NCBI GenBank assembly: GCA_001821395.1
Contig: MHLM01000002.1
Coordinates: 1 to 11,892 of the forward strand
DNA: 11,892 nucleotides
DNA from: Candidatus Lloydbacteria bacterium RIFCSPHIGHO2_02_FULL_50_18
Lineage (GTDB): Bacteria > Patescibacteriota > Minisyncoccia > Phycocordibacterales > UBA6899
Reading direction: 5' to 3'
Under the pieces are notes generated by a model. It saw only the letters and a list, made by a program, of their open reading frames with translations. It searched no databases and was not told where the DNA came from. Positions 1 through 11,892 of the stretch are shown in pieces (position 1 is the stretch's first letter; every line of letters starts with the position of its first letter). The position numbers and the translations under genes were made by a program.

Positions 1-31
1 AATGAATCTACTCCCATTCACAGAGCGACTT

Positions 32-50
32 GTCGAGGTCGGACCTCAAT
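32..50. repeat. Degenerate copy of the 19-nt REP-like palindrome on the 5' flank of the transposase gene (GTCGAGGTC-G-GACCTCaat)
   Basis: The left arm GTCGAGGTC and the centre G are identical to the other copies. The right arm matches only 6 of 9 positions (GACCTC, then aat instead of GAC). It ends 15 nt upstream of the ATG at 65. Confidence 0.5.
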
Positions 51-64
51 AGTAGACTGGGGAG

Positions 65-745
65 ATGGAAAGAAAAGATCCACTCATTGAAGGCGAGCTC
101 TATCATATATTTAACCGAGGGGTTGAAAAAAGAATTGTGTTTAAAAGCCAATCAGATTTCAGGAGGTTCTATGAATCACTCGCACAATTTAACACTACAA
201 ATGCAGCGCTCCACTCACGCACAAAATTCACTACAGAGAACAAAAAATCTGTTGATGTCGAGGTCGGACCTCGACATAATAAGGAACAAAAGCTCGTGAG
301 TATCTTGGCGTATACACTTTTGCCAAATCATTTTCACTTACTGTTGCGACAAGAGAGTCCGGGCGGCATCACTGAATTTATGCGAAAAATTGGAACTGGA
401 TACACGATGTACTTCAATAAAAAATATGTTCGAATTGGTCCGCTTTTTCAAGGAAAATTTAAGAGTGTACTTGTGTCACGAGATGAATATTATCAATACA
501 TCCCCCACTACATACATCTCAACGTACTCGACGCAACACATGCCGGATGGAAGAATGACGGGATATCGGTGGATCAGGCGTACAACGAATTAAGCGCATA
601 TCGATGGTCAAGCGCAAAAGAATATATCGGAAATGATAATCACGAGAGCATACTTGCACATACGGTCATCGATTCGCTTTTTGAAGAAAAACTTTTCAAC
701 AAAAAAATACTCAAGGAGCTGCTCGAGGATGACGCTTCACTCTAA
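65..745 (+). CDS. IS200/IS605-like Y1 (HUH) tyrosine transposase, REP-associated (RAYT-type), 226 aa
   Basis: The ORF is intact. N-terminal motif ELYHIFNRGVEKRIVF. HUH motif in LAYTLLPNHFHLLL (aa 81-94). GPLFQGKFKS matches the RAYT 'G-LWQ-RF' block. A C-proximal RDEYYQYIPHYIHLNVLDA block resembles E. coli RAYT DYRHHVDYIYINPVKHG, which carries the catalytic Tyr. REP-like palindromes flank the gene in inverted polarity. The GGAG ends only 1 nt before the ATG, so the SD context is poor. Confidence 0.85.
   Translation: MERKDPLIEGELYHIFNRGVEKRIVFKSQSDFRRFYESLAQFNTTNAALHSRTKFTTENKKSVDVEVGPRHNKEQKLVSILAYTLLPNHFHLLLRQESPGGITEFMRKIGTGYTMYFNKKYVRIGPLFQGKFKSVLVSRDEYYQYIPHYIHLNVLDATHAGWKNDGISVDQAYNELSAYRWSSAKEYIGNDNHESILAHTVIDSLFEEKLFNKKILKELLEDDASL
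255..277. repeat. Perfect REP palindrome (11-bp stem, 1-nt loop: ATGTCGAGGTC-G-GACCTCGACAT) embedded in-frame in the transposase CDS
   Basis: The core 19-mer at 257-275 is identical to the copy at 5480-5498. It encodes V-D-V-E-V-G-P-R-H (aa 63-71). This falls in a stretch of about 20-25 residues that is extra relative to E. coli RAYT, between the first beta-strand/helix and the HUH strand. Confidence 0.8.
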
Positions 746-777
746 TCTGTCGAGGTCCGACCTCGACAGATTAGAGT
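739..777. repeat. Extended REP hairpin (19-bp perfect stem, 1-nt loop) overlapping the last two codons and stop of the transposase. Opposite polarity to the other copies (centre C instead of G)
   Basis: acTCTAATCTGTCGAGGTC-C-GACCTCGACAGATTAGAgt. Left arm 739-757, loop C758, right arm 759-777; verified base by base. It sits in the 50-bp gap between the convergent stops at 745 (+) and 796 (-). Confidence 0.85.
739..777. terminator. Possible bidirectional transcription stop/mRNA-stabilising hairpin between convergent genes. Not a canonical intrinsic terminator
   Basis: Very stable 19-bp stem between convergent CDSs. No U-run follows on either strand; a T5 run precedes it on the minus-strand transcript. 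Confidence 0.3.
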
Positions 778-795
778 ACGAAAAATCTCGAAACG

Positions 796-2982
796 CTATT
801 CGCCCATGAGGTAGAGACGCCGAATCTCGTCAATAGAAAGTATGCGATTGTAGACACGGAGATCATCGATGGAACCAGTAAATTGTCTGGTGTTTGCAGC
901 ACTATTTCCTATATAGTATGGGTTCGAGTTACCGACTGGTGCTGAAGGTGTAGTAACTGATATTCCTTTGAATACTCCATCAACGTAAAAAGCAGGAGCG
1001 GTACCGGCACCACCATAGGTCACGAGAACGTGTTGCCATTTATTTTGGACAACGATGTTCGCTGCTGATACAGCCACGTTCGCACCATCAGTGGAAAAAC
1101 TGAGACCATTAGCTACGTTCGAATTATCACAAATAAAGAGGGTACTCCCTTTATCCACAATACGACCTCTCGCACCCCCACTACTGAAGTTTGTCGGGTA
1201 GATCCAAGCTGCAATAGTCATCTGTCCAGTGATATTGAGTGATGCCCCCGTACCAGCATTCACCGAATCATTCACTCCATCGAAACGGAGGGCTTGTCCT
1301 ATCTTGCCGATGGTGGTGGTCGTTGGATTCTGATTCTGAAGGCCGCCATGATTCCCCTGCCCCGAGACGTCACGCACATTCGGCATCATATCCTTGCCGT
1401 CGAAGGTCCACTCGCCCATAAGACCGCTGGTGAGTTCATCGCGGTGCGTGACATTCATTTTGAGCGATGCGCCCATGAGATAAAGGCGCTGCACTTCCTC
1501 AGGAGAGAGGACACGATCATAGACACGGACCTCATCAATGAAACCATCGAAATACTGCACACGGACACCCGAAGTATTCACTACAGAGGAAATCGTTAGT
1601 GGTACTGCTCCATTAAAAAGACTCCCTATGTTGTTTGCACCACTTGTCGCCCCGTTACTCAGTACTCCATCAACATAAACATTCGGATAGACTATTCCGG
1701 TAGCAGAGAATGTCATAGTAATAAAGTGCCAATTCCCATCGTTCACCGTTGCGCTGGATATTCTCGTATTAGCACCTACTCCATCTGCTGAGACTAACGC
1801 CCAGAGAACTCCTGCGTTTGTGCCATTTCCGATACTCAACCAGTATTCTCTGTCATTTCCTTGACTCTTGTATTTTCCGATGACCGTTTGTGCAAGAGTA
1901 GTAGAACTTGTCTTAACCCAAGCCGAAAGAGAGATACTTGCTGAGGGGTTAACTGAAGCAGAATCAGGTATGGTCACATAATCATCCACCCCATCAAAAC
2001 TGAGCCCCTGCCCGATCTTGCCGACGGTCGTGGTCGTTGGATTCTGATTCTGCAAACCGCCATGATTTCCCTGCCCCGAAACATCGCGCACGTTCGGTAT
2101 CATGTCCTTGCCGTCGAAGGTCCACTCGCCCATAAGACCGCTGGTGAGTTCATCGCGGTGCGTGACATTCATTTTGAGCGATGCGCCCATGAGATAAAGG
2201 CGCTGCACTTCCTCAGGAGAGAGTGCGCGACTGTAGATGCGGACGTCGTCAACAACACCATTCGTGTTCCGAGAGGTAACACCATCACTGCCCACAACAA
2301 GACCTATGTTTGTTGAGGCGGATCCAGATACTGTTGTGGTTCCACTGAGCACGCCATCAATATACAAATAAGACACGTTTCCAGAACGTAGACCTAGATA
2401 ATAATGCCACGTATTGTCATTGACGGTTGCTAAAACAGACGAAGCATAGTACAAGGTAGTGCCATTAGAAATAACAAAATCTAACTTATTAGTGCTCGCA
2501 TAACTAAAGCCGTAACCGGCTCCAGCGCCATTGTATGACCGTTTGGCAAGTATTACATTCACCGAACTGCCTTGGGAGGAATATCCTGCTCCCTTCATCC
2601 AGAGTCCTACCGAGAAATCACCAGAACCAAAATCTAGTGCACCAGAAACAGGGTCACCGATATTGACGTAAGCGTCAGTATCAGCACCACCGGGGAAAAA
2701 ATTGAATGCTTGTCCGATCTTTCCGATGGTGGCTGCCGGACCATTGGTGAGTGTTCCATTATTCCCCTGACCGCTCCTGTCGTAGACCGTCGTGCCGGAA
2801 ATATCTTTCCCATCAAAACTCCAATAACCGACGAGTCCGGAATTAAGCCTGTATCCCTGCCATGCATTCACCACGAAATTTGCGAGGGCCGTGCGCTGAA
2901 AAAGCGCAAACGTCATTGCAAATACGACGATGAATACCGCGAGGAAAAGAGGAATGATCTTTGGGGAAATTTTTTTATGCAT
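796..2982 (-). CDS. Secreted protein with three tandem LamG/concanavalin-A-like lectin (LamG_3-type jelly-roll) domains. Distal gene of the array
   Basis: The ORF is intact. I place the start at ATG 2982 (MHKKISPK...) because that N-terminus is shared with the paralog. The ORF track's 2991 is an upstream TTG. Sec signal peptide MHKKISPKIIPLFLAVFIVVFAMTFALFQRTALA, with an AXA cleavage site before NF. Three repeats follow the LamG_3 pattern: G-x-W-x-FDG ... SGQGNxG-L ... GKIGQ-x-FDG ... W-H ... LY-DGV ... D(D/E)VR-Y-R-LS-xE-(V/I). Stop TAG at 796-798. No SD motif upstream. Confidence 0.85.
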   Translation of the reverse strand: MHKKISPKIIPLFLAVFIVVFAMTFALFQRTALANFVVNAWQGYRLNSGLVGYWSFDGKDISGTTVYDRSGQGNNGTLTNGPAATIGKIGQAFNFFPGGADTDAYVNIGDPVSGALDFGSGDFSVGLWMKGAGYSSQGSSVNVILAKRSYNGAGAGYGFSYASTNKLDFVISNGTTLYYASSVLATVNDNTWHYYLGLRSGNVSYLYIDGVLSGTTTVSGSASTNIGLVVGSDGVTSRNTNGVVDDVRIYSRALSPEEVQRLYLMGASLKMNVTHRDELTSGLMGEWTFDGKDMIPNVRDVSGQGNHGGLQNQNPTTTTVGKIGQGLSFDGVDDYVTIPDSASVNPSASISLSAWVKTSSTTLAQTVIGKYKSQGNDREYWLSIGNGTNAGVLWALVSADGVGANTRISSATVNDGNWHFITMTFSATGIVYPNVYVDGVLSNGATSGANNIGSLFNGAVPLTISSVVNTSGVRVQYFDGFIDEVRVYDRVLSPEEVQRLYLMGASLKMNVTHRDELTSGLMGEWTFDGKDMMPNVRDVSGQGNHGGLQNQNPTTTTIGKIGQALRFDGVNDSVNAGTGASLNITGQMTIAAWIYPTNFSSGGARGRIVDKGSTLFICDNSNVANGLSFSTDGANVAVSAANIVVQNKWQHVLVTYGGAGTAPAFYVDGVFKGISVTTPSAPVGNSNPYYIGNSAANTRQFTGSIDDLRVYNRILSIDEIRRLYLMGE
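1391..1508. repeat. 118-nt segment letter-identical to 2105-2222 within the same LamG gene (linker 2 vs linker 1)
   Basis: Read by eye: TCCTTGCCGTCGAAGGTCCACTCGCCCATAAGACCGCTGG...CTTCCTCAGGAGAGAG is identical at both sites. Both encode ...SLKMNVTHRDELTSGLMGEWTFDGKD on the minus strand. Confidence 0.8.
1976..2127. repeat. 152-nt segment letter-identical between the two LamG genes (gene 1 linker 1 vs gene 2 linker 1 at 4444-4595). About 93% identity continues to roughly 2250/4720
   Basis: ACATAATCATCCACCCCATCAAAACTGAGCCCCTGCCCGATCTTGCC...GTCGAAGGTCCACTC is identical at both sites at a constant offset of 2468. The flanking domain cores differ. Confidence 0.8.
2105..2222. repeat. Partner copy of the 118-nt perfect intragenic repeat (matches 1391-1508)
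   Basis: See the 1391-1508 feature. Confidence 0.8.
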
Positions 2983-3017
2983 ACATGGCAAGATATCATT
3001 TCAGGGCTGCTCGATGC

Positions 3018-3092
3018 TCAAGCGCCACTTTCTGCTGAAATGACGGGGGCAGGAACGTCAGGAACAGGTGCCGTAGGATCGGAAACAGGAAG
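3018..3092 (-). pseudogene. Relic of a giant-gene 3' end (C-terminal about 24 codons plus stop) upstream of the distal LamG gene. Footprint of a duplicated 'fibre C-terminus + LamG' unit
   Basis: The minus-strand translation ...LPVSDPTAPVPDVPAPVISAESGA* matches the giant protein's C-terminus ...PVSEPTAPVPDVPAPVISSGGGA*. At DNA level 3036-3090 aligns with 5548-5602, 55 nt with 2 mismatches. There is no plausible start or upstream coding context. Confidence 0.7.
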
Positions 3093-3185
3093 CGTAGTGG
3101 ATCGTTTAAAATGTTTCTTTATATTATTCATTTGCATATATCATAACACATAACATTTTCATCCATTCTTAGGGAGCTACCGATG

Positions 3186-3204
3186 TCAAGGTTAAACCTT
3201 GACA
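3186..3204. repeat. Variant REP palindrome GTCAAGGTT-A-AACCTTGAC (9-bp stem, 1-nt loop). Same architecture as the main REP
   Basis: Perfect 19-nt palindrome. It shares GTC-AGGT...ACCT-GAC with GTCGAGGTC-G-GACCTCGAC. It lies about 40 nt downstream of the LamG2 stop (3243), and a T6 run precedes it on the minus-strand transcript. Confidence 0.6.
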
Positions 3205-3242
3205 AAAAAGGCCTAAAATACGGCTAAGAACATGGAGGGCTT

Positions 3243-5459
3243 TTATTTGCCCATAAGGTAGAGACGCTGGATCTCGTCGGGAGAAAGTACGCGGTTGTAA
3301 ATGCGGACTTCATCCATTCTCCCAGAAAATAGTCTAAGGCTATCAGCGAAACGTCCAGCAATATAAAGTGGAGTTGAAGCACTTGAACCTATACTCTGCG
3401 TCATGTTTGCAGCAGTGGTTACTTTTACTCCATTAACATAGAAACTTAAAGTTCCACTTCCACTGTAGGTTACGGCAATATGCTGCCAACGATTTAACGT
3501 AATGACATTAGTTGCATATCCATAGTCTACACTAATACTACCCGCAGCATTTACGCCGAAACCAAGACCGGCTGTTGTATTTGTATTATCCAAAAGAAAA
3601 ATATAACCTACATTACTGCCTAGTCTGTCTACAATTCTTGCTCGGTCTCCGAATGAGGTTGGATATATCCAAGCATTTACCGTTATGGCAGTTGTGATAT
3701 TGAGCGATGAGCCAGTCCCAACATTTATTTTGTCATCTACCCCATCAAAATTCAACCCCTGTCCTATCTTGCCGATCGTGGTGGTCGTCGGATTCTGATT
3801 CTGAAGGCCGCCGTTGTTCCCCTGCCCCGAGACATCACGCACGTTCGGTGTCATGTCCTTGCCGTCAAAGGTCCATTCGCCCACGAGGCCACTCGTGAGT
3901 TCATCGCGATGAGTGACGTTTGTTTTGAGTGATGCACCCATGAGATAGAGGCGCTTAACTTCATCGGCAGAGAGGGCGCGGTTGTAGGCACGGACCTCGT
4001 CAAGATTGCCGTCAAAGGGCATACTCCAATCAGAACGAGCGCCGACGACTAAGGCGTTTGACCCTGCGCTAATTGCACTGATACCAACAGTGCTCACTCC
4101 ATTGTCGCCCACCCCAACACCATTAACATACAGCTTCAGCCCACTCGCATTATTCGCCAAAAAAGTGCCGCACACATGTGTCCACACGCTCAGTTGAGTC
4201 GTATTTGACGGAGTTTCGATTCTCGCAGTACCAGTATCGGCACTATCCCAAATAGCAAAAGTGTACACGTCTGTTCGTCCCGAAGAAAAACCAACATCAT
4301 CACGAAAAAGAAGAAAACCGTTACTAGCAACAACGTCTTCCTTTGCAATGATGGCGTCATCGGATGTAATTGACCCATGATAGGCCCAGACACAAACTGT
4401 AAGTTCTGTCGCTGTATCTAAACTATTAATATCTCCCGCACTGACATAATCATCCACCCCATCAAAACTGAGCCCCTGCCCGATCTTGCCGACGGTCGTG
4501 GTCGTTGGATTCTGATTCTGCAAACCGCCATGATTTCCCTGCCCCGAAACATCGCGCACGTTCGGTATCATGTCCTTGCCGTCGAAGGTCCACTCACCAA
4601 CGAGACCCCCGGTGAGTTCATCGCGGTGGGTGACGTTTGTTTTGAGCGATGCGCCCATGAGATAGAGACGCTGCACTTCCTCAGGAGAGAGTGCGCGACT
4701 GTAGATACGAACGTCATCAACAATAACGTTGGCGTTTCTACCTCCATCGAGAGCACTATCGGCACCAATGATAAGACCGGAGGCAGTAGAACATGAGCCA
4801 CTTACTGTTGCGTTCGTACCCCTCACCATTCCGTCTCGATACAATGACATCATACCCCCCGAACGCATTCCGACATAGTGATGCCATGTATTATCATTCA
4901 TGGTGGCTGAAACATCATTAGCAGAATATGCTGTAGTGCCGTTCGCGATAGTAAAAGCCAGTATATTCCCACTGCCATAAGAAAATCCATAACCGGTTCC
5001 GACACTATTGTATGACTTTTTCGCGAGTGCTACATTCACCGAACTACCTTGAGAGGAATATCCAGTTCCTTTCATCCAAAATCCTACCGAGAAATCCCCT
5101 GTTCCAAAATCGAGCATCCCTGAAACGGGATCCCCCATGTTCGCATATGCATTCGTATCGGAACCATTAGGGAAAAAATTAAATGCTTGCCCAATCTTGC
5201 CGATGGTGGCTGCCGGACCATTGGTGAGCGTTCCATTATTGCCCTGGCCACTCCGATCATAGGCTGTTGTGCCGGAGATATCTTTGCCATCAAAACTCCA
5301 ATATCCGACGAGTCCGGAATTAAGTCGATACCCCTGCCATGCATTCACCACGAAATTTGCAAGTGCCGTGCGTTGAAATAGCGCAAACGTCATTGCAAAT
5401 ACGACGATGAATACCGCGAGAAAAAGAGGGATGATCTTTGGGGAGATTTTTTTATGCAT
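3243..5459 (-). CDS. Secreted protein with three tandem LamG/concanavalin-A-like lectin domains. Proximal gene of the array and paralog of 796-2982
   Basis: The start is placed at ATG 5459 (MHKKISPK...), which is the same signal peptide as in the paralog. The track's ORF runs to 5606 only because the frame stays open across the REP and the giant gene's 3' end. The first ~95 aa are near-identical to the paralog, as are the inter-domain linkers, but the cores of domains 1-3 are diverged and domain 2 is essentially a different LamG variant. Stop TAA at 3243-3245. No SD motif upstream. Confidence 0.85.
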   Translation of the reverse strand: MHKKISPKIIPLFLAVFIVVFAMTFALFQRTALANFVVNAWQGYRLNSGLVGYWSFDGKDISGTTAYDRSGQGNNGTLTNGPAATIGKIGQAFNFFPNGSDTNAYANMGDPVSGMLDFGTGDFSVGFWMKGTGYSSQGSSVNVALAKKSYNSVGTGYGFSYGSGNILAFTIANGTTAYSANDVSATMNDNTWHHYVGMRSGGMMSLYRDGMVRGTNATVSGSCSTASGLIIGADSALDGGRNANVIVDDVRIYSRALSPEEVQRLYLMGASLKTNVTHRDELTGGLVGEWTFDGKDMIPNVRDVSGQGNHGGLQNQNPTTTTVGKIGQGLSFDGVDDYVSAGDINSLDTATELTVCVWAYHGSITSDDAIIAKEDVVASNGFLLFRDDVGFSSGRTDVYTFAIWDSADTGTARIETPSNTTQLSVWTHVCGTFLANNASGLKLYVNGVGVGDNGVSTVGISAISAGSNALVVGARSDWSMPFDGNLDEVRAYNRALSADEVKRLYLMGASLKTNVTHRDELTSGLVGEWTFDGKDMTPNVRDVSGQGNNGGLQNQNPTTTTIGKIGQGLNFDGVDDKINVGTGSSLNITTAITVNAWIYPTSFGDRARIVDRLGSNVGYIFLLDNTNTTAGLGFGVNAAGSISVDYGYATNVITLNRWQHIAVTYSGSGTLSFYVNGVKVTTAANMTQSIGSSASTPLYIAGRFADSLRLFSGRMDEVRIYNRVLSPDEIQRLYLMGK
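4444..4595. repeat. Partner copy of the 152-nt perfect inter-paralog repeat (matches 1976-2127)
   Basis: See the 1976-2127 feature. Confidence 0.8.
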
Positions 5460-5479
5460 ACACTGCTGGCGTGCTGGAG

Positions 5480-5498
5480 GTCGAGGTCGGACCTCGAC
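5480..5498. repeat. Dispersed perfect copy of the REP 19-mer GTCGAGGTC-G-GACCTCGAC in the 70-bp gap between the giant gene stop and the LamG2 start
   Basis: Identical to 257-275. The left flank carries a GAGGTC duplication (gGAGGTCGAGGTCg). Confidence 0.8.
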
Positions 5499-5511
5499 AA
5501 GATGATGCACT

Positions 5512-5524
5512 GAGGCCCGGCCTC
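5512..5524. repeat. GC-rich REP-like mini-palindrome GAGGCC-C-GGCCTC immediately 3' of the giant gene stop. With 5480-5498 it forms a BIME-like tandem of related hairpins
   Basis: 6-bp stem, 1-nt loop. The context tGAGGCCcGGCCTCg parallels cGAGGTCgGACCTCg of the main REP. Confidence 0.5.
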
Positions 5525-5529
5525 GAAGC

Positions 5530-8500
5530 TCACGCGCCTCCCCCGGATGAAATGACGGGGGCAGGAACGTCAGGAACAGGTGCCGTAGGCTCGGAGACAG
5601 GAGCATCGGGAACTGGGGGCGTTGGTTCTGGGACAGGAGTATCGAGAACAGGAGGCGTGGATTCGGAAGTAGGAGGCGTGATGGGTTCTGAAACGAGTGG
5701 TGTAACGGGTTCAGTTACGGTAGAAACCGTTGATTCAGTAACAACGGGTACGCCCGACTCAGTGTTTGTGGTGTCACCGGTACCCACCTCAACAGTCGGC
5801 TGTTCTATTGTAGGTGGTGTTGAGTTTGCGCTCGTACTGCCTCCGGTAGCCCCCTCTTCAGGAGGCAATTCATCAAACGGAGTTCCCGACTGGATTAGGA
5901 GTGCACGCAGTCCCGCCTCGTCGATGCAGACACGCCCGACACATAATTTCTTTGTCTGCACTTCAGGGATCTTGAGCACACCGTTCTCATCGAGCGACCA
6001 GTTGTTTGCAACGCCGCGTAACGAGCCGATCTCAGCGATCGAGAATGACTGCATGTTGATCGATGCATTGGCGAGCATTGTATTGTTCTCAGTATCGACA
6101 GACCAGATATTCCCCAGGTCGACCGATTCGCCCGACACCGCACTTCCGAGCGAGCTCAGCTTGGTCTGCACGAATACGAACAGCTTCATTGTTGTCTCAT
6201 TGTTCACCGTAGCGATATATGGCTCAAGTGCGATACCGACTGTTGGCTCTCCCGGTGCGGCCTTCTTTCCTACTCCAATGACGGATGAAGGAGCGATCAT
6301 GTCTCCCACATGGATCGCACCGCCCTCAAGCGAGACCGTCACCGGGACACGTCCGACAAGCGCGATCGGGATCTGCCGTGCGTTATTCTCGGCAACATCA
6401 TCCTTGATATCGCCCGCGACTTTAAATCCACCGAGAATGACACCCGGATCAGTCGAGACAACACCGAAGAGAATTGGACCGGGAACAGTTTTGTCAAAAC
6501 GCTTCACGAACACGGGATGTGCGGGATCGAGCATGACGATATCGCCCGGCATAGCGGCGCTGTCGAGTGTCGGATACTGCTCGGCAACGTCGATACCGGC
6601 AAGCGATGAACCTTCTCCGTAGATGAACCCTCGCGTGCGTGCTGCAGCAGAACACTCACCACCATCATCGTTCACACAGATGATACCATTCTCAACAATG
6701 AGCGACGCATCGGGAATGTTGGATGAATAATACGGCGTCGTGGAACCGATATTCACGGTTGTTGAACCCACTGTGCCACCTGATAATGCTTCACCCGAGA
6801 TCGTGAGCATAGGGATGCCATCGAGCTGTGCGGAGTAGCGTTCTTTCGTTCCCACTGCGGATAATGAAGTAATGTTCATATCGATCCAGCTCAAAATACC
6901 CGCATCGTTCTCAAATTCCGCAGGACCCGCCTCAAGGTGGTCCACCGACATGTTGACGAACGATGAGGTGGCCGAGGAAGAAGTGGCGGTAAAGAAGTTC
7001 GCAAGTACCTCGCCGACCACAGAGAGTTTCGCCCATGGAGAACTCGTGCCGATCCCCACATTACCATTGTTCAACACCGTGAAGAGCGTGGTCGAGGCGC
7101 TGTTGGCTACTTCAAATGCCATTGAAGTTGCGAGGGTATCCCCTCCCCAGACCGTGAGCTTGGCATAGGGAGAAGAGGTGCCGACACCGAGCTTGCCAGT
7201 GAGTGGCTGGGTGGTGAGGGAAGTGTTTGTTGTGGTGGCAGGAAGGTTGGCAAAGAGGAAGTTGCCGATGTTCATCATGTTGCTCGAGGATACTGCGGGG
7301 AATTTGATGTTGTAGCCCATGCCAATGTTGTTGTAGCCCGTGGTGATGGCGGTGCCTCCGGAGTTTTGGTCATGTCCGAGGAAGATATTGTCATAGCCGG
7401 TAGTGACGTTGAGGCCGGCTTGATAGCCGAGGGCGGTGTTGTATGAGCCAGTATTGTTGAGGAAGAGGGCTTGATACCCCAATGCGTTATTGTATAAGCC
7501 GGTGGTATTGGCGTTGAGGGCGCTTACTCCCAAAGCGGTGTTGTATGAGCCGGTGGTGTTGGAGTAGAGGGCGCTTGCTCCCAATACGTTGTTGTATGAG
7601 CCGGTGGTGTTGGAGTAGAGGGCGTATTGTCCTAATGCAGCGTTGACGCTTCCGTTAGTGTTGGAGTAGAGGGCGGAATATCCCAATGCGTTGTTGCTGG
7701 AGCCAGTGGTGTTGGAGTAGAGGGATTGGTACCCCAATGCATTGTTCGCTGCGCCGGTCGAGCCATTCGTCCCAGAAAGTCCTCTGAGTGCTTGAAATCC
7801 TACAGCAAAATTATCTGTTCCTGACGTTGCATATTGCATTGCGTATTGACCCATCGCAATGTTGTTACCACCAGTAGCCGGTGATCCTCCTGTGAAGGAT
7901 CCGGTGGTGGTTGCTCCCGCATAGTAGAAGTTCATGCGGGTTGAAGAGGCGGCCATACCGAGAACGCCATTCAAGTAGTATCCACCGAGGGAGCTCGTGG
8001 CGTTGAATGCGGTTGCGTTTGGGGTGGAGGTTGGAGCGATAGTCGTGGCACTCGTCCAAGCGGAGAGCATTCCTGCAACACCACCGGAGAGTGATGCACC
8101 TGAAGTGAGGCAGGTGCCGTTCACGGCGAAGCAGCCTGCAGCAAGATTGATGCCACCGGTACTATTGAATGTTGAAGTTGCTGCGGTAAAGTTGATACCG
8201 TTTGTTGTGCCGAGGGAGAGGAGAGAGCCAGGAGTGGTCGAGCCAATTCCCATGTTGCCACTATTTGCGACGGTAAATACTTCATCAGACGAGTTGTTTA
8301 AGCTCATGATCTTGCCTGTTCCCATCTGGGTGGTTGATGCGAGAGCAACGGAGGAGGAGGCGAAGATGGAAAGTGGTGAGTATGCGACTTGTCCGAGTTG
8401 TTTAGTATCGAGCGTGAGCCGATCCCACTCTGTGTATTTCGTGCCGGTTCCGAGGTCATTGATTGACGATGCACCCGTGCCGGAGTATGAGTTGCCGACG

Positions 8501-11500
8501 AGGACGTTGTTGTCGGAGGTGGAGTTGACGATATCGATCGCATAGCCGGTGCCGGCGGTATCGACAATGCTATTGGAAGAAACAACGTTCCCGTCAGAGG
8601 TGATGATGTAGATACTGCTGTTCGCTCCCGCGGCACCGTTATTGTAGAGCGAGTTGGCGGTGACGGTATTGTTTGAGGCGCTGTCGAGGTAGAAGCCATA
8701 GTGACTGTTACTATCCGCAGTATTGCCGGTAAGGGTGTTGTTTGAGGAGAGGTAGATTTTCATACCGTCATAGTTATTTCTCACGGTATTCCCAGTGACA
8801 GTATTATTTAAGGAGGAGAGGAGGTAGATGCCGAAGTTTCCGCTGCTGTTGGCGGTATTGCCTGTGAGGATGTTGTCGTTGGAGGAGGAGAGGGAGATGC
8901 CGATGCTACTGTTGCTATTCGCGATATTGCCGGTGAGGGTGTTATTTAGGGAGGAGAGGAGGGAGATGCCGATGGCGTTGATGTTCGCGGTGTTTCCGGT
9001 GAGGGTATTGTTTGAGGAGGAAGAGAGGTAGATGCCATTGCCGTTGTTGCTATTCGTAGTATTGCCGGTGAGGGTGTTATCGTTGGAGGAGGAGAGGAAG
9101 ATACCATGGTTGGTAGTGGTGGCAACAGTAATATTTCTGATAGTAGAAGAAGCTACGGAGGTGAATCTGATACCGTTTTGGAAGCCAGTGTTACGCCCTT
9201 GATTTCCATCAACGAAGAGGTCGGCAATGGTGACGTATGAGAGGGTGTTGGCGGCAATAGCATTTGCCGTCGCGTTTGTTGAGGATGCAATATGGATGAC
9301 GGTGGAGTTCCCGAAACCGATGAGGGAAGTGGAGGTTGCCATCTGGATCTTGTCCCCTGCTCCGGTGGAGAGGTAGTAATCTCCTTCCATGAGGTAGACC
9401 TTGCCGCCGCGACCACCTGCGTATGCAGCTTGGAGTGCGGTGTTGATGGCGGTTTCTGCACCTGCGCCGTCTGCGACATAATCTGCGTACGCTTTGTTCG
9501 TGGAGTTTTGTGCTGCGACGGTATAGGTTGCGCCGTCACCATCGGGAGATGCTGCTCCTCCTCCGACACAGACGCCATTCACTGCAAAGCAGCCTGAGGA
9601 GAGTGCGATACCTCCGGCGAATGTACTCGTTGCGCCTCCGGTAACTGCAAGGTTTGAGGTGGTTGCCGTATTGGAGACGATGAAGTTTGAGGTGGAGGCG
9701 AGTCCGTTGTTGAAAATGGAGAAGAGTGAAGTTGAGGCGGAGTTCACTGCTTCAAATGCGCGGGAGGTGTCGAGAGTATCCCCTCCCCAGACGGTGAGCT
9801 TGGCATAGGGAGAAGAGGTACCGACACCGAGCTTGCCGGTCAAGGGTTGAGTGGTGAGGGTTGTTCCGGTGGTGGTCGCAGGAAGGTTGGCAAAGAGGAA
9901 GTTGCCGATATTCATCATGTTGCTTGAGGATACTGCGGGGAATTTGATGTTGTAGCCCATACCGATGTTGTTGTATCCCGTGGTGATGGCGGTGCCTCCA
10001 ACGTTTTCGTCGTGCCCGAGGAAGATGTTGTCGTAGCCGGTGGTGACGTTGTATCCTGCCTGATTACCGAGGGCAGTGTTGTATGAGCCGGTGGTGTTAA
10101 AAATGAGGGAATAATGCCCGAATGCGTTGTTGTATGAACCGATGGTGTTATTGGAAAGTGCACTGCCACCAAATACACTGTTAAATGATCCCGTAGTGTT
10201 TTCTAACATAGATGTTTCACCAAAAGCTGAATTTCCTCCTCCCGTTGTATTTTTTCCTAACGAGTTTGAACCAACAGCAGTGTTGTCACTACCGGAAATA
10301 TTATTGCTTAACGCCCCTGCACCAACACCGGTGTTGTATCCTCCGGTTAAATTTGACTGTAGCACTGCCTCACCGATCGCAGTGTTTATATTACCAGTTG
10401 TATTTTGCATTAAGGTTGATTTTCCAAATGCAGTGTTGAAATTTCCGGTATTCGCCTGTAATGCCCAATAACCGAATGCGGTATTATTAATTCCCGGGGT
10501 ACTACTTGTTCCCGCCCCAAGACCCATGAAAGTATTGTATGTCGTCGACGATGCAGTGATAAATTTTTGTCCATTCCAATAGACATAGCCATCAGTTACC
10601 CCAGTATCAATAGCGATGTTTCCCGCAACGCTGAGTTTTGCCCAGGGAGAGGTGGTGCCAATACCGACGTATCCATTATTTGCAACGGTGAAGACTTCGC
10701 TCGAACTATTGTTGAGCGACATGATCTTGCCACTTCCCATCTGAGTAGTGGACGCAAGCGCGACGGAAGAGGAGGCGAAGATAGCAAGCGGTGAGTATGC
10801 AACTTGGCCGAGTTGCTTGGTATCGAGGGTGAGGCGGTCCCACTGTGTGTATTTGGTGTTAGTGCCGAGGTCCTGAATAGAGGAGGCACCGATACCGGAG
10901 TATGAGTTGCCGATGAGGACGTTGTTGTCGGAGGCGGAGGAGGTGAGATGGATCGCATAACCCGTACCAGCGGTATCTTGGATGATGTTGGAAGAAATGA
11001 CGTTCCAATCAGAAGTTTCGATACGAATACTGCTGTTCGCTGACGCGGCTGTGTTATCAGCAAGCGAGTTGCCAGTGACGGTGTTGTTTGAGGAAGAGGA
11101 AAGGAAAATACCGTAAAAACTATTGTTATTCACGGTGTTCCCAGTGACGATGTTGTTATTGGAGGAGCCAGCGAGGTAGATGCCGGTGTAGCTGTTACTA
11201 TTCGCAGTGTTCCCAGTGACGATGTTGTTTGAGGAGGACATGAGGTAGATGCCGTAGTTGGTGTTGCTATTTACTGTATTCCCAGTGACGATGTTGTTCA
11301 AAGAGGTGGCAGAGAGGAGGAAGCCGTTGTTACCGTTACCACTGAACGTATTCCCAATGACGGTATTATTCAAGGAAGAGACGAGGTAGATGCCAGTGTC
11401 GGTCGTGGTGGCAACCGTAACGTTCCTGATAGTAGAGGAGGAAACGGAAGTAAATTGGATACCAGTTTGTGAACTGGTGTTCCGCCCTCTATTTCCATCA

Positions 11501-11892
11501 ATGAAGAGATCGGCAATTGTGATGTATGAGAGTGTGTTTGCCACGATAGCGTTGGCGGTTGCGTTGGTGGATGACGCAATATGAATGACCGTAGATTGTC
11601 CTGCTCCAATGAGTGATGTTGAGGTTGCCATCTGGATCTTGTCCCCTGCTCCGGTGGAGAGATAGTAGTCTCCTTCCATGAGGTAGACCTTGCCGCCACG
11701 GCCTCCTGCGTATGCAGCTTGGAGGGCGGTGTTGATTGCGGTTTCTGCGCCTGCGCCGTCTGCGACATAATCTGCGTACGCTTTGTTCGTGGAGTTTTGT
11801 GCTGCGACGGTATAGGTTGCACCGTCACCATCGGGAGATGCTGCTCCCCCTCCGACACACGTGCCGTTCACTGCGAAGCAGCCGGCGGAGAT
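5530..11892 (-). CDS. Giant modular surface/fibre-like protein, 5'-partial (at least 2120 aa in the window). Two tandem units of ~763 aa (tailspike/pectate-lyase-like beta-helix + stalk + 17-residue repeat array), a C-terminal globular domain and a Pro/Thr-rich tail
   Basis: One uninterrupted frame runs from the window edge to the stop at 5530-5532. The frame is still open at 11892 (translation ...ISAGCFAVNGTC... matches the internal repeat SSGCFAVNGVC), so the true start lies outside. GDGATYTVAAQ...GAETAINTALQAAYAGGRGGKVYLMEGDYYL is the typical N-cap of the Pectate_lyase_3/tailspike beta-helix family. NxxLTGNTANSNSxYGIYL repeats are PbH1 beta-helix coils. Confidence 0.85.
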   Translation of the reverse strand: MSAGCFAVNGTCVGGGAASPDGDGATYTVAAQNSTNKAYADYVADGAGAETAINTALQAAYAGGRGGKVYLMEGDYYLSTGAGDKIQMATSTSLIGAGQSTVIHIASSTNATANAIVANTLSYITIADLFIDGNRGRNTSSQTGIQFTSVSSSTIRNVTVATTTDTGIYLVSSLNNTVIGNTFSGNGNNGFLLSATSLNNIVTGNTVNSNTNYGIYLMSSSNNIVTGNTANSNSYTGIYLAGSSNNNIVTGNTVNNNSFYGIFLSSSSNNTVTGNSLADNTAASANSSIRIETSDWNVISSNIIQDTAGTGYAIHLTSSASDNNVLIGNSYSGIGASSIQDLGTNTKYTQWDRLTLDTKQLGQVAYSPLAIFASSSVALASTTQMGSGKIMSLNNSSSEVFTVANNGYVGIGTTSPWAKLSVAGNIAIDTGVTDGYVYWNGQKFITASSTTYNTFMGLGAGTSSTPGINNTAFGYWALQANTGNFNTAFGKSTLMQNTTGNINTAIGEAVLQSNLTGGYNTGVGAGALSNNISGSDNTAVGSNSLGKNTTGGGNSAFGETSMLENTTGSFNSVFGGSALSNNTIGSYNNAFGHYSLIFNTTGSYNTALGNQAGYNVTTGYDNIFLGHDENVGGTAITTGYNNIGMGYNIKFPAVSSSNMMNIGNFLFANLPATTTGTTLTTQPLTGKLGVGTSSPYAKLTVWGGDTLDTSRAFEAVNSASTSLFSIFNNGLASTSNFIVSNTATTSNLAVTGGATSTFAGGIALSSGCFAVNGVCVGGGAASPDGDGATYTVAAQNSTNKAYADYVADGAGAETAINTALQAAYAGGRGGKVYLMEGDYYLSTGAGDKIQMATSTSLIGFGNSTVIHIASSTNATANAIAANTLSYVTIADLFVDGNQGRNTGFQNGIRFTSVASSTIRNITVATTTNHGIFLSSSNDNTLTGNTTNSNNGNGIYLSSSSNNTLTGNTANINAIGISLLSSLNNTLTGNIANSNSSIGISLSSSNDNILTGNTANSSGNFGIYLLSSLNNTVTGNTVRNNYDGMKIYLSSNNTLTGNTADSNSHYGFYLDSASNNTVTANSLYNNGAAGANSSIYIITSDGNVVSSNSIVDTAGTGYAIDIVNSTSDNNVLVGNSYSGTGASSINDLGTGTKYTEWDRLTLDTKQLGQVAYSPLSIFASSSVALASTTQMGTGKIMSLNNSSDEVFTVANSGNMGIGSTTPGSLLSLGTTNGINFTAATSTFNSTGGINLAAGCFAVNGTCLTSGASLSGGVAGMLSAWTSATTIAPTSTPNATAFNATSSLGGYYLNGVLGMAASSTRMNFYYAGATTTGSFTGGSPATGGNNIAMGQYAMQYATSGTDNFAVGFQALRGLSGTNGSTGAANNALGYQSLYSNTTGSSNNALGYSALYSNTNGSVNAALGQYALYSNTTGSYNNVLGASALYSNTTGSYNTALGVSALNANTTGLYNNALGYQALFLNNTGSYNTALGYQAGLNVTTGYDNIFLGHDQNSGGTAITTGYNNIGMGYNIKFPAVSSSNMMNIGNFLFANLPATTTNTSLTTQPLTGKLGVGTSSPYAKLTVWGGDTLATSMAFEVANSASTTLFTVLNNGNVGIGTSSPWAKLSVVGEVLANFFTATSSSATSSFVNMSVDHLEAGPAEFENDAGILSWIDMNITSLSAVGTKERYSAQLDGIPMLTISGEALSGGTVGSTTVNIGSTTPYYSSNIPDASLIVENGIICVNDDGGECSAAARTRGFIYGEGSSLAGIDVAEQYPTLDSAAMPGDIVMLDPAHPVFVKRFDKTVPGPILFGVVSTDPGVILGGFKVAGDIKDDVAENNARQIPIALVGRVPVTVSLEGGAIHVGDMIAPSSVIGVGKKAAPGEPTVGIALEPYIATVNNETTMKLFVFVQTKLSSLGSAVSGESVDLGNIWSVDTENNTMLANASINMQSFSIAEIGSLRGVANNWSLDENGVLKIPEVQTKKLCVGRVCIDEAGLRALLIQSGTPFDELPPEEGATGGSTSANSTPPTIEQPTVEVGTGDTTNTESGVPVVTESTVSTVTEPVTPLVSEPITPPTSESTPPVLDTPVPEPTPPVPDAPVSEPTAPVPDVPAPVISSGGGA
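5533..5871 (-). other. Pro/Thr/Glu/Val-rich low-complexity C-terminal tail (aa about 2001-2113). Likely an extended spacer or wall-spanning segment
   Basis: ...TEPVTPLVSEPITPPTSESTPPVLDTPVPEPTPPVPDAPVSEPTAPVPDVPAPVISSGGGA*. Confidence 0.6.
5872..7074 (-). other. C-terminal globular region (aa about 1600-2000) containing the motifs GDIVMLD, GVVSTDPGVILGG, ALVGRVPVTV and GAIHVGDMIAPSS
   Basis: Non-repetitive sequence with mixed composition, distinct from the upstream repeats. The motifs resemble C-terminal domains seen on some phage tail-fibre-like proteins. The family assignment is unverified. Confidence 0.35.
7141..7360. repeat. About 220 nt at roughly 90% identity to 9781-10000. Both encode the conserved junction GYDNIFLGHD...NIGMGYNIKFPAVSSSNMMNIGNFLFANLPATTT...GKLGVGTSSPYAKLTVWGGD
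   Basis: Long identical runs, e.g. GCAGGAAGGTTGGCAAAGAGGAAGTTGCCGAT and GAGGATACTGCGGGGAATTTGATGTTGTAGCCCAT. The period of this segment is 2640 nt, different from the 2289-nt period of the cap, so the duplication is mosaic. Confidence 0.75.
7312..7851 (-). other. Array 2 of about 8 tandem 17-residue repeats of the same family
   Basis: aa about 1341-1520: ANNALGYQSLYSNTTGS / SNNALGYSALYSNTNGS / VNAALGQYALYSNTTGS / YNNVLGASALYSNTTGS / YNTALGVSALNANTTGL ... Confidence 0.7.
8512..9561 (-). other. Beta-helix module 2 (second copy of cap plus PbH1 coils), aa about 771-1120
   Basis: The same cap sequence is repeated 763 aa downstream of the first. The coils are diverged, e.g. NSNSHYGFYLDSASNNTVTAN. 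Confidence 0.6.
9351..9605. repeat. Internal tandem duplication of the giant gene: about 255 nt at roughly 92% identity to 11640-11892. Period 2289 nt = 763 aa
   Basis: GTCCCCTGCTCCGGTGGAGAG...GCGACGGTATAGGTTGC...CACTGC read in parallel at both sites. Both encode the beta-helix cap (GDGATYTVAAQ...KVYLMEGDYYL). Confidence 0.8.
9781..10000. repeat. Partner copy of the 7141-7360 junction repeat
   Basis: See the 7141-7360 feature. Confidence 0.75.
9952..10509 (-). other. Array 1 of about 9 tandem 17-residue repeats, consensus x-(Y/F)-N-(T/N)-A-(F/L/I)-G-x-x-(A/S)-L-x-x-N-T-T-G (51-nt period)
   Basis: aa about 455-640: NFNTAFGKSTLMQNTTG / NINTAIGEAVLQSNLTG / GYNTGVGAGALSNNISG / SDNTAVGSNSLGKNTTG ... 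The register is exact over 8 or more units. Confidence 0.7.
10912..11892 (-). other. Beta-helix module 1 (pectate-lyase/tailspike-like cap plus about 9 PbH1 coils), aa about 1-320 of the visible ORF
   Basis: Cap motif AETAINTALQAAYAGGRGGKVYLMEGDYYL, then repeated N-N-x-(I/V/L)-T-G-N-T-x-N-S-N-x-x-x-G-I-Y-L rungs. Confidence 0.6.
11640..11892. repeat. Partner copy (unit 1) of the 2289-nt-period duplication
   Basis: See the 9351-9605 feature. Confidence 0.8.

Follow-up and report, generated by a model that had tools for sequence, protein, structure and literature searches.

In type I restriction-modification systems, the conserved regions of HsdS that separate its variable target-recognition domains mediate domain swapping, and Gram-positive surface proteins of the Rib / alpha C type carry tandem repeats that are identical at the DNA level. 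Concerted evolution of bacterial paralogs by gene conversion has been described for the omp2a/omp2b genes of Brucella (PMC7050475), and concerted evolution in prokaryotes has also been surveyed more widely (PMC6053082). Here we analyse two tandem paralogs, gene A (796-2982) and gene B (3243-5459), from Candidatus Lloydbacteria, an uncultured groundwater bacterium of the Candidate Phyla Radiation (CPR)/Patescibacteria. The window, as we use the term, is the entire 11,892-nt contig of the metagenome-assembled genome (MAG) on which they lie. Each gene encodes three laminin G-like (LamG) domains. We conclude, with a probability of roughly 0.8, that gene conversion and homologous recombination have acted at the blocks that join successive domains and have left the domain cores diverged. 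The process itself, concerted evolution and segmental recombination of surface-protein genes, is a known one; the lineage and the protein family appear not to have been described for it in the literature.

As in Brucella omp2a/omp2b, tracts of the two paralogs within one genome are closer to each other than to their orthologs or alleles, and the identity is mosaic, dependent on homology and non-reciprocal. Unlike in Brucella, only the domain edges are homogenised, this happens between domains of one gene as well, and the cores are non-orthologous rather than merely diverged. The resemblance to HsdS lies in an architecture in which conserved, recombinogenic spacers alternate with variable binding domains; in HsdS, the specificities are reassorted when the spacers recombine. 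Many HsdS systems, however, rely on inverted repeats acted on by a dedicated recombinase, whereas the present locus has direct repeats, implicates no recombinase and is unrelated in fold and function. Intragenic homogenisation and the gain or loss of units through direct repeats recall the Rib / alpha C proteins (compare the 238-codon deletion and the members with three, four or five domains described below), but in those proteins whole repeats are identical, while here about 40% of each unit, its edges, is homogenised and the cores differ. The MgPa (mgpB/mgpC)/MgPar system of Mycoplasma genitalium (PMC2169797) also belongs to a small-genome, host-dependent bacterium, and there too the variable segments of an adhesin are flanked by conserved sequence and undergo homologous recombination; the MgPar donors are truncated, unexpressed and scattered, whereas both genes here are complete, apparently expressible and in tandem, and no silent archive is seen in the window. 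Gene conversion likewise moves binding domains among adhesion-interface paralogs in the primate CEACAM receptors (PMC8860441), although these are on the eukaryotic host side and their Ig domains are defined by exons.

Genes A and B lie on the minus strand and encode proteins of 728 aa (OGZ10203.1) and 738 aa (OGZ10204.1) with the same architecture, an N-terminal signal-anchor helix followed by three Laminin_G_3 domains (Pfam PF13385 in three stretches of each open reading frame (ORF), E 4e-76 and 8e-82). Every repeat unit belongs to PF13385, the whole proteins scoring 254.7 and 273.2 bits where the cutoff is 27.6. In the AlphaFold2 model of the gene A protein (44 homologs, mean predicted local distance difference test score (pLDDT) 80.5) there are three beta-sandwiches, each closing with a strand and a C-terminal helix, and two linkers of about nine residues (269-277 and 507-515) with pLDDT below 50. 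The model and a Foldseek search agree on a beta-sandwich jelly-roll fold, the matches being neurexin LNS domains, laminin LG arrays and the receptor-binding Hc domains of neurotoxins (probability 1.00). A and B are tandem paralogs for membrane-anchored or secreted proteins of three LamG (concanavalin-A-like lectin) domains, which may bind carbohydrate or protein ligands. An adhesion role has been published, as speculation, for concanavalin-like proteins mediating attachment in CPR bacteria (PMC12911398). The fimbrial protein TafC (NF052521) was rejected as an identity for either gene, with 164 and 135 bits against a cutoff of 410 and only the LamG domain in common.

The similarity between A and B is strongly uneven. 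A tract of 152 nt in junction 1 of A, between domain 1 (D1) and domain 2 (D2) (1976-2127, minus strand), is letter-identical to junction 1 of B (4444-4595, minus strand) and encodes the start of D2 (EWTFDGKDMIPNVRDVSGQGNHGGLQNQNPTTTTVGKIGQGLSFDGVDDYV). This exact identity had been reported in the original prediction, and the tract cannot be extended by a single base on either side; the 280 nt from 1976-2255 and 4444-4723 are 94.6% identical, close to the earlier estimate of about 93% over some 275 nt. The cores, all on the minus strand, were said to be strongly diverged and the middle ones barely alignable, and indeed protein identity is 65% for D1 (A, 2254-2691; B, 4722-5168), 48% for domain 3 (D3; A, 871-1266; B, 3318-3731) and 25% for D2 (A, 1540-1980; B, 4005-4448). 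The A-D2 core is an orphan type that is at most 34% identical to any other core here. The B-D2 core is 49% identical to D2 of allele C, the corresponding gene of a sister MAG, and the B-D1 core has 100% nucleotide identity to that MAG (L003, below). The core types are non-orthologous at position 2 (A against B and C) and at position 3 (C against A and B). In sliding windows of 30 codons, nucleotide identity between A and B ranges from 0.27 to 1.00.

Synonymous divergence (dS), calculated by block with the Nei-Gojobori method, follows the same mosaic. It is 1.62 in the D1 core, 3.6 (saturated) in the D2 core and 1.62 in the D3 core, against 0.44 in the 5' half of junction 1 and 0.06 in its 3' half, where the exact tract lies. 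Junction 2 of A and B has a dS of 0.92 and an identity of only ~83-89%. The longest run of unchanged codons, counted over degenerate codons for identical amino acids, is 48. When codons were permuted over the whole gene, 0 of 200,000 trials gave a run of this length, and 2 of 200,000 did so when the permutation was confined to the three conserved blocks (p of about 1e-5 or less). This run, together with the dS contrast between tract and cores, upholds the earlier argument that constraint on the amino acids cannot explain the identity. The leader and the start of D1 (A, 2499-2985; B, 4976-5462; both minus strand) are 84.2% identical over 487 nt, and their first 65 residues are identical in the protein. 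The 27 differing sites in the first 270 coding nt amount to the 90% identity given for this 5' region by the original prediction, which had also called the leader DNA perfectly identical; this it is not, since the longest exact run is 41 nt and dS is 0.59, with a nonsynonymous divergence (dN) of 0.005. Identical protein over diverged DNA is the pattern expected mainly from purifying selection.

Nor is the conserved block a mere linker, as had been supposed. Each junction block is about 95 codons long and runs from the last beta-strand and C-terminal helix of one domain, through some 10 residues of flexible linker, into the next domain, of which it takes in the first four strands. The protein sequence of the block is conserved across the whole LamG family. 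Within gene A there is a further exact repeat, of 119 nt, that was overlooked by the original prediction. It is shared by junction 1 (2105-2223) and junction 2 (1391-1509), both on the minus strand; in junction 1 it encodes the end of D1 with the C-terminal helix, followed by the flexible linker, and 23 nt of it also belong to the 152-nt tract. Both exact tracts border a core on one side. A junction 1 has the sequence of A junction 2 in its 5' half and that of B junction 1 in its 3' half, and since the two exact tracts overlap and have different partners, it is a chimera. Among the informative sites of the four junctions, six group by gene and one by position in the 5' half, while in the 3' half none group by gene and ten by position. 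This switch from gene to position halfway through the junction is significant (Fisher p = 5.7e-4), and incongruence of this kind within 250 nt is a classic signature of gene conversion.

Junction 2 of B (3717-4003, minus strand) has gene-B-specific variants in common with B junction 1 and position-2 variants in common with A junction 2. In alignments of 360 nt its identity to each of the other three junctions is ~72-74%, and to the allele C junctions (L003, L010) it is 83%. Over the 152-nt tract, A junction 1 and B junction 1 have no differences, whereas junction 1 of allele C differs at 5 sites. Excess synonymous identity, phylogenetic incongruence and paralogs within one genome that are closer than alleles, the features by which gene conversion is recognised, are thus all found at this locus. 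The explanation first offered, that gene conversion or recombination has acted recently and only at the domain junctions, is the best reading of the dS contrast, the chimeric junction 1, the switch in site pattern and the sister allele.

Other public assemblies contain variants of the locus. Two match the window at 100%, one (L001) over 1-6617 and the other, a JGI contig (L002/L021), over 1-4560, where it stops 117 nt into the 152-nt repeat. Another Lloydbacteria MAG from Rifle (GCA_001818945.1; L003) is 100% identical to the window for ~7.2 kb, from 11892 to ~4680. This identical part takes in a giant gene upstream of B, the leader and B-D1; afterwards identity is 35-80%, with a different D2 and D3. 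The contig of Parcubacteria GW2011_GWA2_47_7 (L010 = L028) agrees with L003 at 100% from position 9298 up to where the contig ends, and it has the same gene, with the domains D2'-D3''. Upstream of that point its D1 is 88-100% identical in 60-nt windows (37 differences in ~800 nt) and its giant gene ~88%. L003 is of the window type on the left and of the L010 type on the right, and the switch falls in a 14-nt interval, gene nt 793-806, inside junction 1. A comparison with related genomes, one of the checks proposed for the original prediction, yields an allele switch within junction 1. A k-mer join would need a longer stretch common to all three sequences than these 14 nt, provided that the donor was similar to L010, and L003 is therefore read more simply as a genuine allelic recombinant. 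At about 17 of its 38 differences from B over gene nt 1-800, L010 has the base of gene A, and the sequences suggest that the A/B differences are shared polymorphisms that have been spread by conversion across alleles. L010 has only one tri-LamG gene, which is followed by housekeeping genes, indicating that the locus is chromosomal and that gene number varies between strains.

Two further variants are simpler. One (L004, JGI; protein P0002, 490 aa) corresponds to gene A after the loss of exactly 714 nt, that is, domain 2 or 238 codons; its arms are 100% identical to the window and the deletion join falls inside the 119-nt repeat. The other (P0004, from run SRR3989344 and available as protein only) follows A over residues 1-336 and B over residues 285-523 bar one substitution, ranges that place its A-D1::B-D2 junction in the 152-nt tract. 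Both are expected from recombination between direct repeats, and both may equally have arisen from a wrong assembler path through the repeat. In a search with gene B, no close variants were found beyond P0001-P0004 and P0089. No donor of the A-D2 core above 41% identity was found in an exhaustive HMMER search of 1.84 billion representatives. A metagenome scan with a junction 24-mer gave 23 loci, only three of them substantially similar to the window in nucleotides. The idea that the junctions flank exchangeable cassettes therefore stands in part: the non-orthologous cores, the breakpoint of L003 and the joins of L004 and P0004 in exact repeats are in its favour, while the last two joins may be assembler artefacts and the A-D2 core is without a donor.

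The LamG family is large in Patescibacteria, with 1,903 matches at E <= 1e-10 among the candidates scored and with three, four or five domains per protein; 341 relatives were found in species-representative genomes. Direct repeats of at least 93% identity and at least 90 nt are present in 13 of 79 species-representative loci, and most are spaced ~640-720 nt or ~1,400 nt apart, corresponding to one or two domain lengths. Nine of these repeats were translated; the frame was readable in six, each of which encodes the same junction peptide. In within-gene pairs the fraction of identical residues encoded by the same codon is 0.51 in junctions and 0.39 in cores (Mann-Whitney U test, p = 6e-10, this locus excluded). 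Nucleotide identity of 80% or more is reached by 16 of 65 junction pairs, compared with 0 of 178 core pairs. Local tracts of 94-99% identity were also noted in unrelated Patescibacteria (L040, 4668-5169 vs 10273-10774; L006, 4096-4262 vs 4807-4973; L031, 10634-10915 vs 11315-11596), either between LamG junctions or between neighbouring LamG-containing paralogs.

We propose that purifying selection would keep the junction blocks similar in DNA and that the blocks would in this way serve as ordinary substrates for homologous recombination, presumably of the RecA type. For RecA-dependent recombination in Escherichia coli the minimal processing segment is about 25 nt, and the exact stretches of 119-152 nt are well above this length. 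Exchange would take the form of short-tract gene conversion and of unequal crossing-over between direct repeats, and it could occur within one gene, between A and B, or between the alleles of co-occurring strains. If repeated, it would wipe out synonymous differences in the junction blocks. Conversion tracts would stop on running out of homology, at cores that diverged long ago or are not orthologous, and crossovers between direct repeats would delete, duplicate or exchange whole cores. The outcome would be a locus whose domain content differs among near-identical strains. Exchanged cores might also alter ligand or host binding, and might do so adaptively, as the lectin fold and the published speculation on attachment (PMC12911398) would allow.

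Several points weigh against gene conversion and recombination at the junctions. All of the sequences are short-read metagenome assemblies, and exact repeats of 119-152 nt exceed typical k-mer sizes. The connectivity of D1 to D2 across the junctions is not proven for the window, L004 or P0004, and the bubble-popping step of an assembler could turn an identity of ~98-99% into 100%. Without a donor of the A-D2 core, shuffling from a shared pool of cassettes is not demonstrated. In the family as a whole, the median junction pair is only ~66% identical in DNA, so homogenisation would be recurrent but episodic rather than constant. The codon test uses pairs that are not independent, and stronger codon selection at conserved residues could inflate its result.

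The first of these points leads to the alternative that survives best, an assembly artefact in which collapse of the de Bruijn graph, bubble-popping and wrong paths through repeats created both the exact identity and the variants, namely the D2 deletion, the A-D1::B-D2 fusion and L003. The JGI contig that ends 117 nt inside the 152-nt repeat breaks off as a graph would, the joins of L004 and P0004 lie exactly in exact repeats and so are legal, possibly false, graph paths, and P0004 and an intact A protein come from one and the same run assembly. Yet three assemblies agree at 100% across the region, two of which extend over both repeats, the switch interval of L003 is too short for a k-mer join under the condition given above, and the D2'-D3'' gene is confirmed independently by L010. 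Artefacts are, moreover, unable to produce a graded mosaic of flank variants or the same pattern in unrelated genomes. We consider an artefact improbable as an explanation of the whole, and possible for the connectivity and for the two simple variants.

More improbable still is a dedicated system of programmed diversification, whether a diversity-generating retroelement (DGR), a site-specific shufflon, antigenic variation from silent cassettes, or a transposase related to the REP-associated tyrosine transposases (RAYT) acting on hairpins like repetitive extragenic palindromic (REP) elements. The locus does vary between strains, a RAYT-like gene adjoins the pair, and the pair is bracketed by REP-like palindromes, one of them 21-40 nt upstream of B and another just downstream of A. 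The palindrome is, however, absent downstream of allele C and from L010. A DGR was rejected because there is no reverse transcriptase among the ORFs of the window and the mismatches are mostly third-position transitions without adenine bias. An inversion shufflon of the HsdS / Rci type was likewise set aside, as A and B are on the same strand, the shared tracts are all direct and no inverted repeats link the genes. Against silent cassettes of the pilE/pilS, vlsE or MgPa/MgPar type, both genes are full length with an ATG and a leader, and the 11.9-kb window contains no partial or promoterless LamG fragments.

Hardly credible, finally, is purifying selection alone, in which the junction would be the structural frame of the LamG fold, perhaps under strong codon preference and with no recombination: the junction peptide is indeed conserved family-wide and the dN and dS of the leader form a classic selection pattern, but 48 consecutive degenerate codons are unchanged while junction 2 and the leader, which are equally constrained, have a dS of 0.6-0.9, the baseline same-codon fraction is 0.36-0.39, and phylogenetic incongruence occurs inside 250 nt. 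A structured RNA or other nucleotide-level element in the tract was also considered and rejected; folding is weaker than in shuffled sequences (z = +1.3 and +1.4), and Rfam gave no match.

A life in attachment to other microbes is assumed for CPR/Patescibacteria, and little is known of what sets their partner specificity. The genes for lectin-fold surface proteins described here vary in domain content, with breakpoints in conserved junctions, between strains whose sequences are otherwise 100% identical for 7 kb, and this makes them concrete candidates for specificity determinants, with a simple mechanism of turnover. The locus carries a practical warning as well. Short-read assemblies are broken or mis-routed by its exact repeats of 119-152 nt, and LamG proteins catalogued from MAGs may as a consequence be chimeric or lack some of their domains. 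A broader idea, which we raise tentatively and would sooner bet against, is that the junction blocks of multi-LamG genes are a Patescibacteria-wide recombination scaffold on which lectin cores are swapped, deleted and added between paralogs and between co-existing strains. If this were true, the locus downstream of the giant gene would be a rapidly re-tunable module for the recognition of hosts or ligands. It would then be a functional analogue of HsdS reassortment that is run on general recombination between direct repeats.

The RAYT-like ORF (65-745) converges on gene A and has matches to REP_Tyr_transpos and Y1_Tnp. A palindrome of about 20 nt, GTCGAGGTC(S)GACCTCGAC, is found four times in the window, where 0.01 copies are expected by chance. 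One copy (31-52) is just upstream of the RAYT-like ORF and another (256-281) is in frame within it. The third (739-777) is a perfect 19+19 hairpin between the convergent stops of the RAYT-like ORF and gene A, and the fourth (5480-5499) is 21-40 nt upstream of the gene B ATG, with no counterpart at the matching place upstream of A. Taken together, the palindromes and the RAYT-like ORF look like a REP/RAYT pair that brackets the LamG genes.

Directly upstream of B, on the minus strand, is the giant gene (5530-11871), which encodes a right-handed beta-helix protein of at least 2113 aa that is cut by the contig end; in L003 (57-8435) it has 2792 aa. The gene is internally duplicated, with exact runs of up to 71 nt (9461-9531 = 11750-11820), and the recombination-prone repeat biology of the LamG genes may extend to it. 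The C-terminus of the protein is Pro/Thr-rich, and there are PHROG matches to tail-spike and virion structural proteins. A prophage origin was rejected, as the PHROG matches are at the level of domains only and the locus of a related species runs into the housekeeping genes BipA, DEAD-box helicase, FtsJ and CorA.

The 3' end of the giant gene has left a second copy in the window. Upstream of A, a relic on the minus strand (3010-3090) is 87.7% identical to 5522-5602, with an exact core of 42 nt (3036-3077); it derives from the giant gene, whose last ~80 nt it repeats. This duplicated segment was also overlooked by the original prediction, and it shows that the unit of duplication was the 3' end of the giant gene plus a LamG gene. 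In the intergenic region with this decayed copy of the last codons of the giant gene (PTAPVPDVPAPVIS...; 3018-3131 and 3010-3090), other annotations call an ORF of 37 aa, which is probably a relic and not a gene. The coding region of the giant gene is rich in repeats and biased in composition, and the long plus-strand ORFs opposite it, such as 5438-6622 (394 aa), are most probably its shadow ORFs. A further palindrome, TTGTCAAGGTTTAACCTTGACA (3184-3205), lies about 40 nt past the stop of gene B, ahead of an AT-rich stretch upstream of A, and may form a terminator or an operator-like hairpin.

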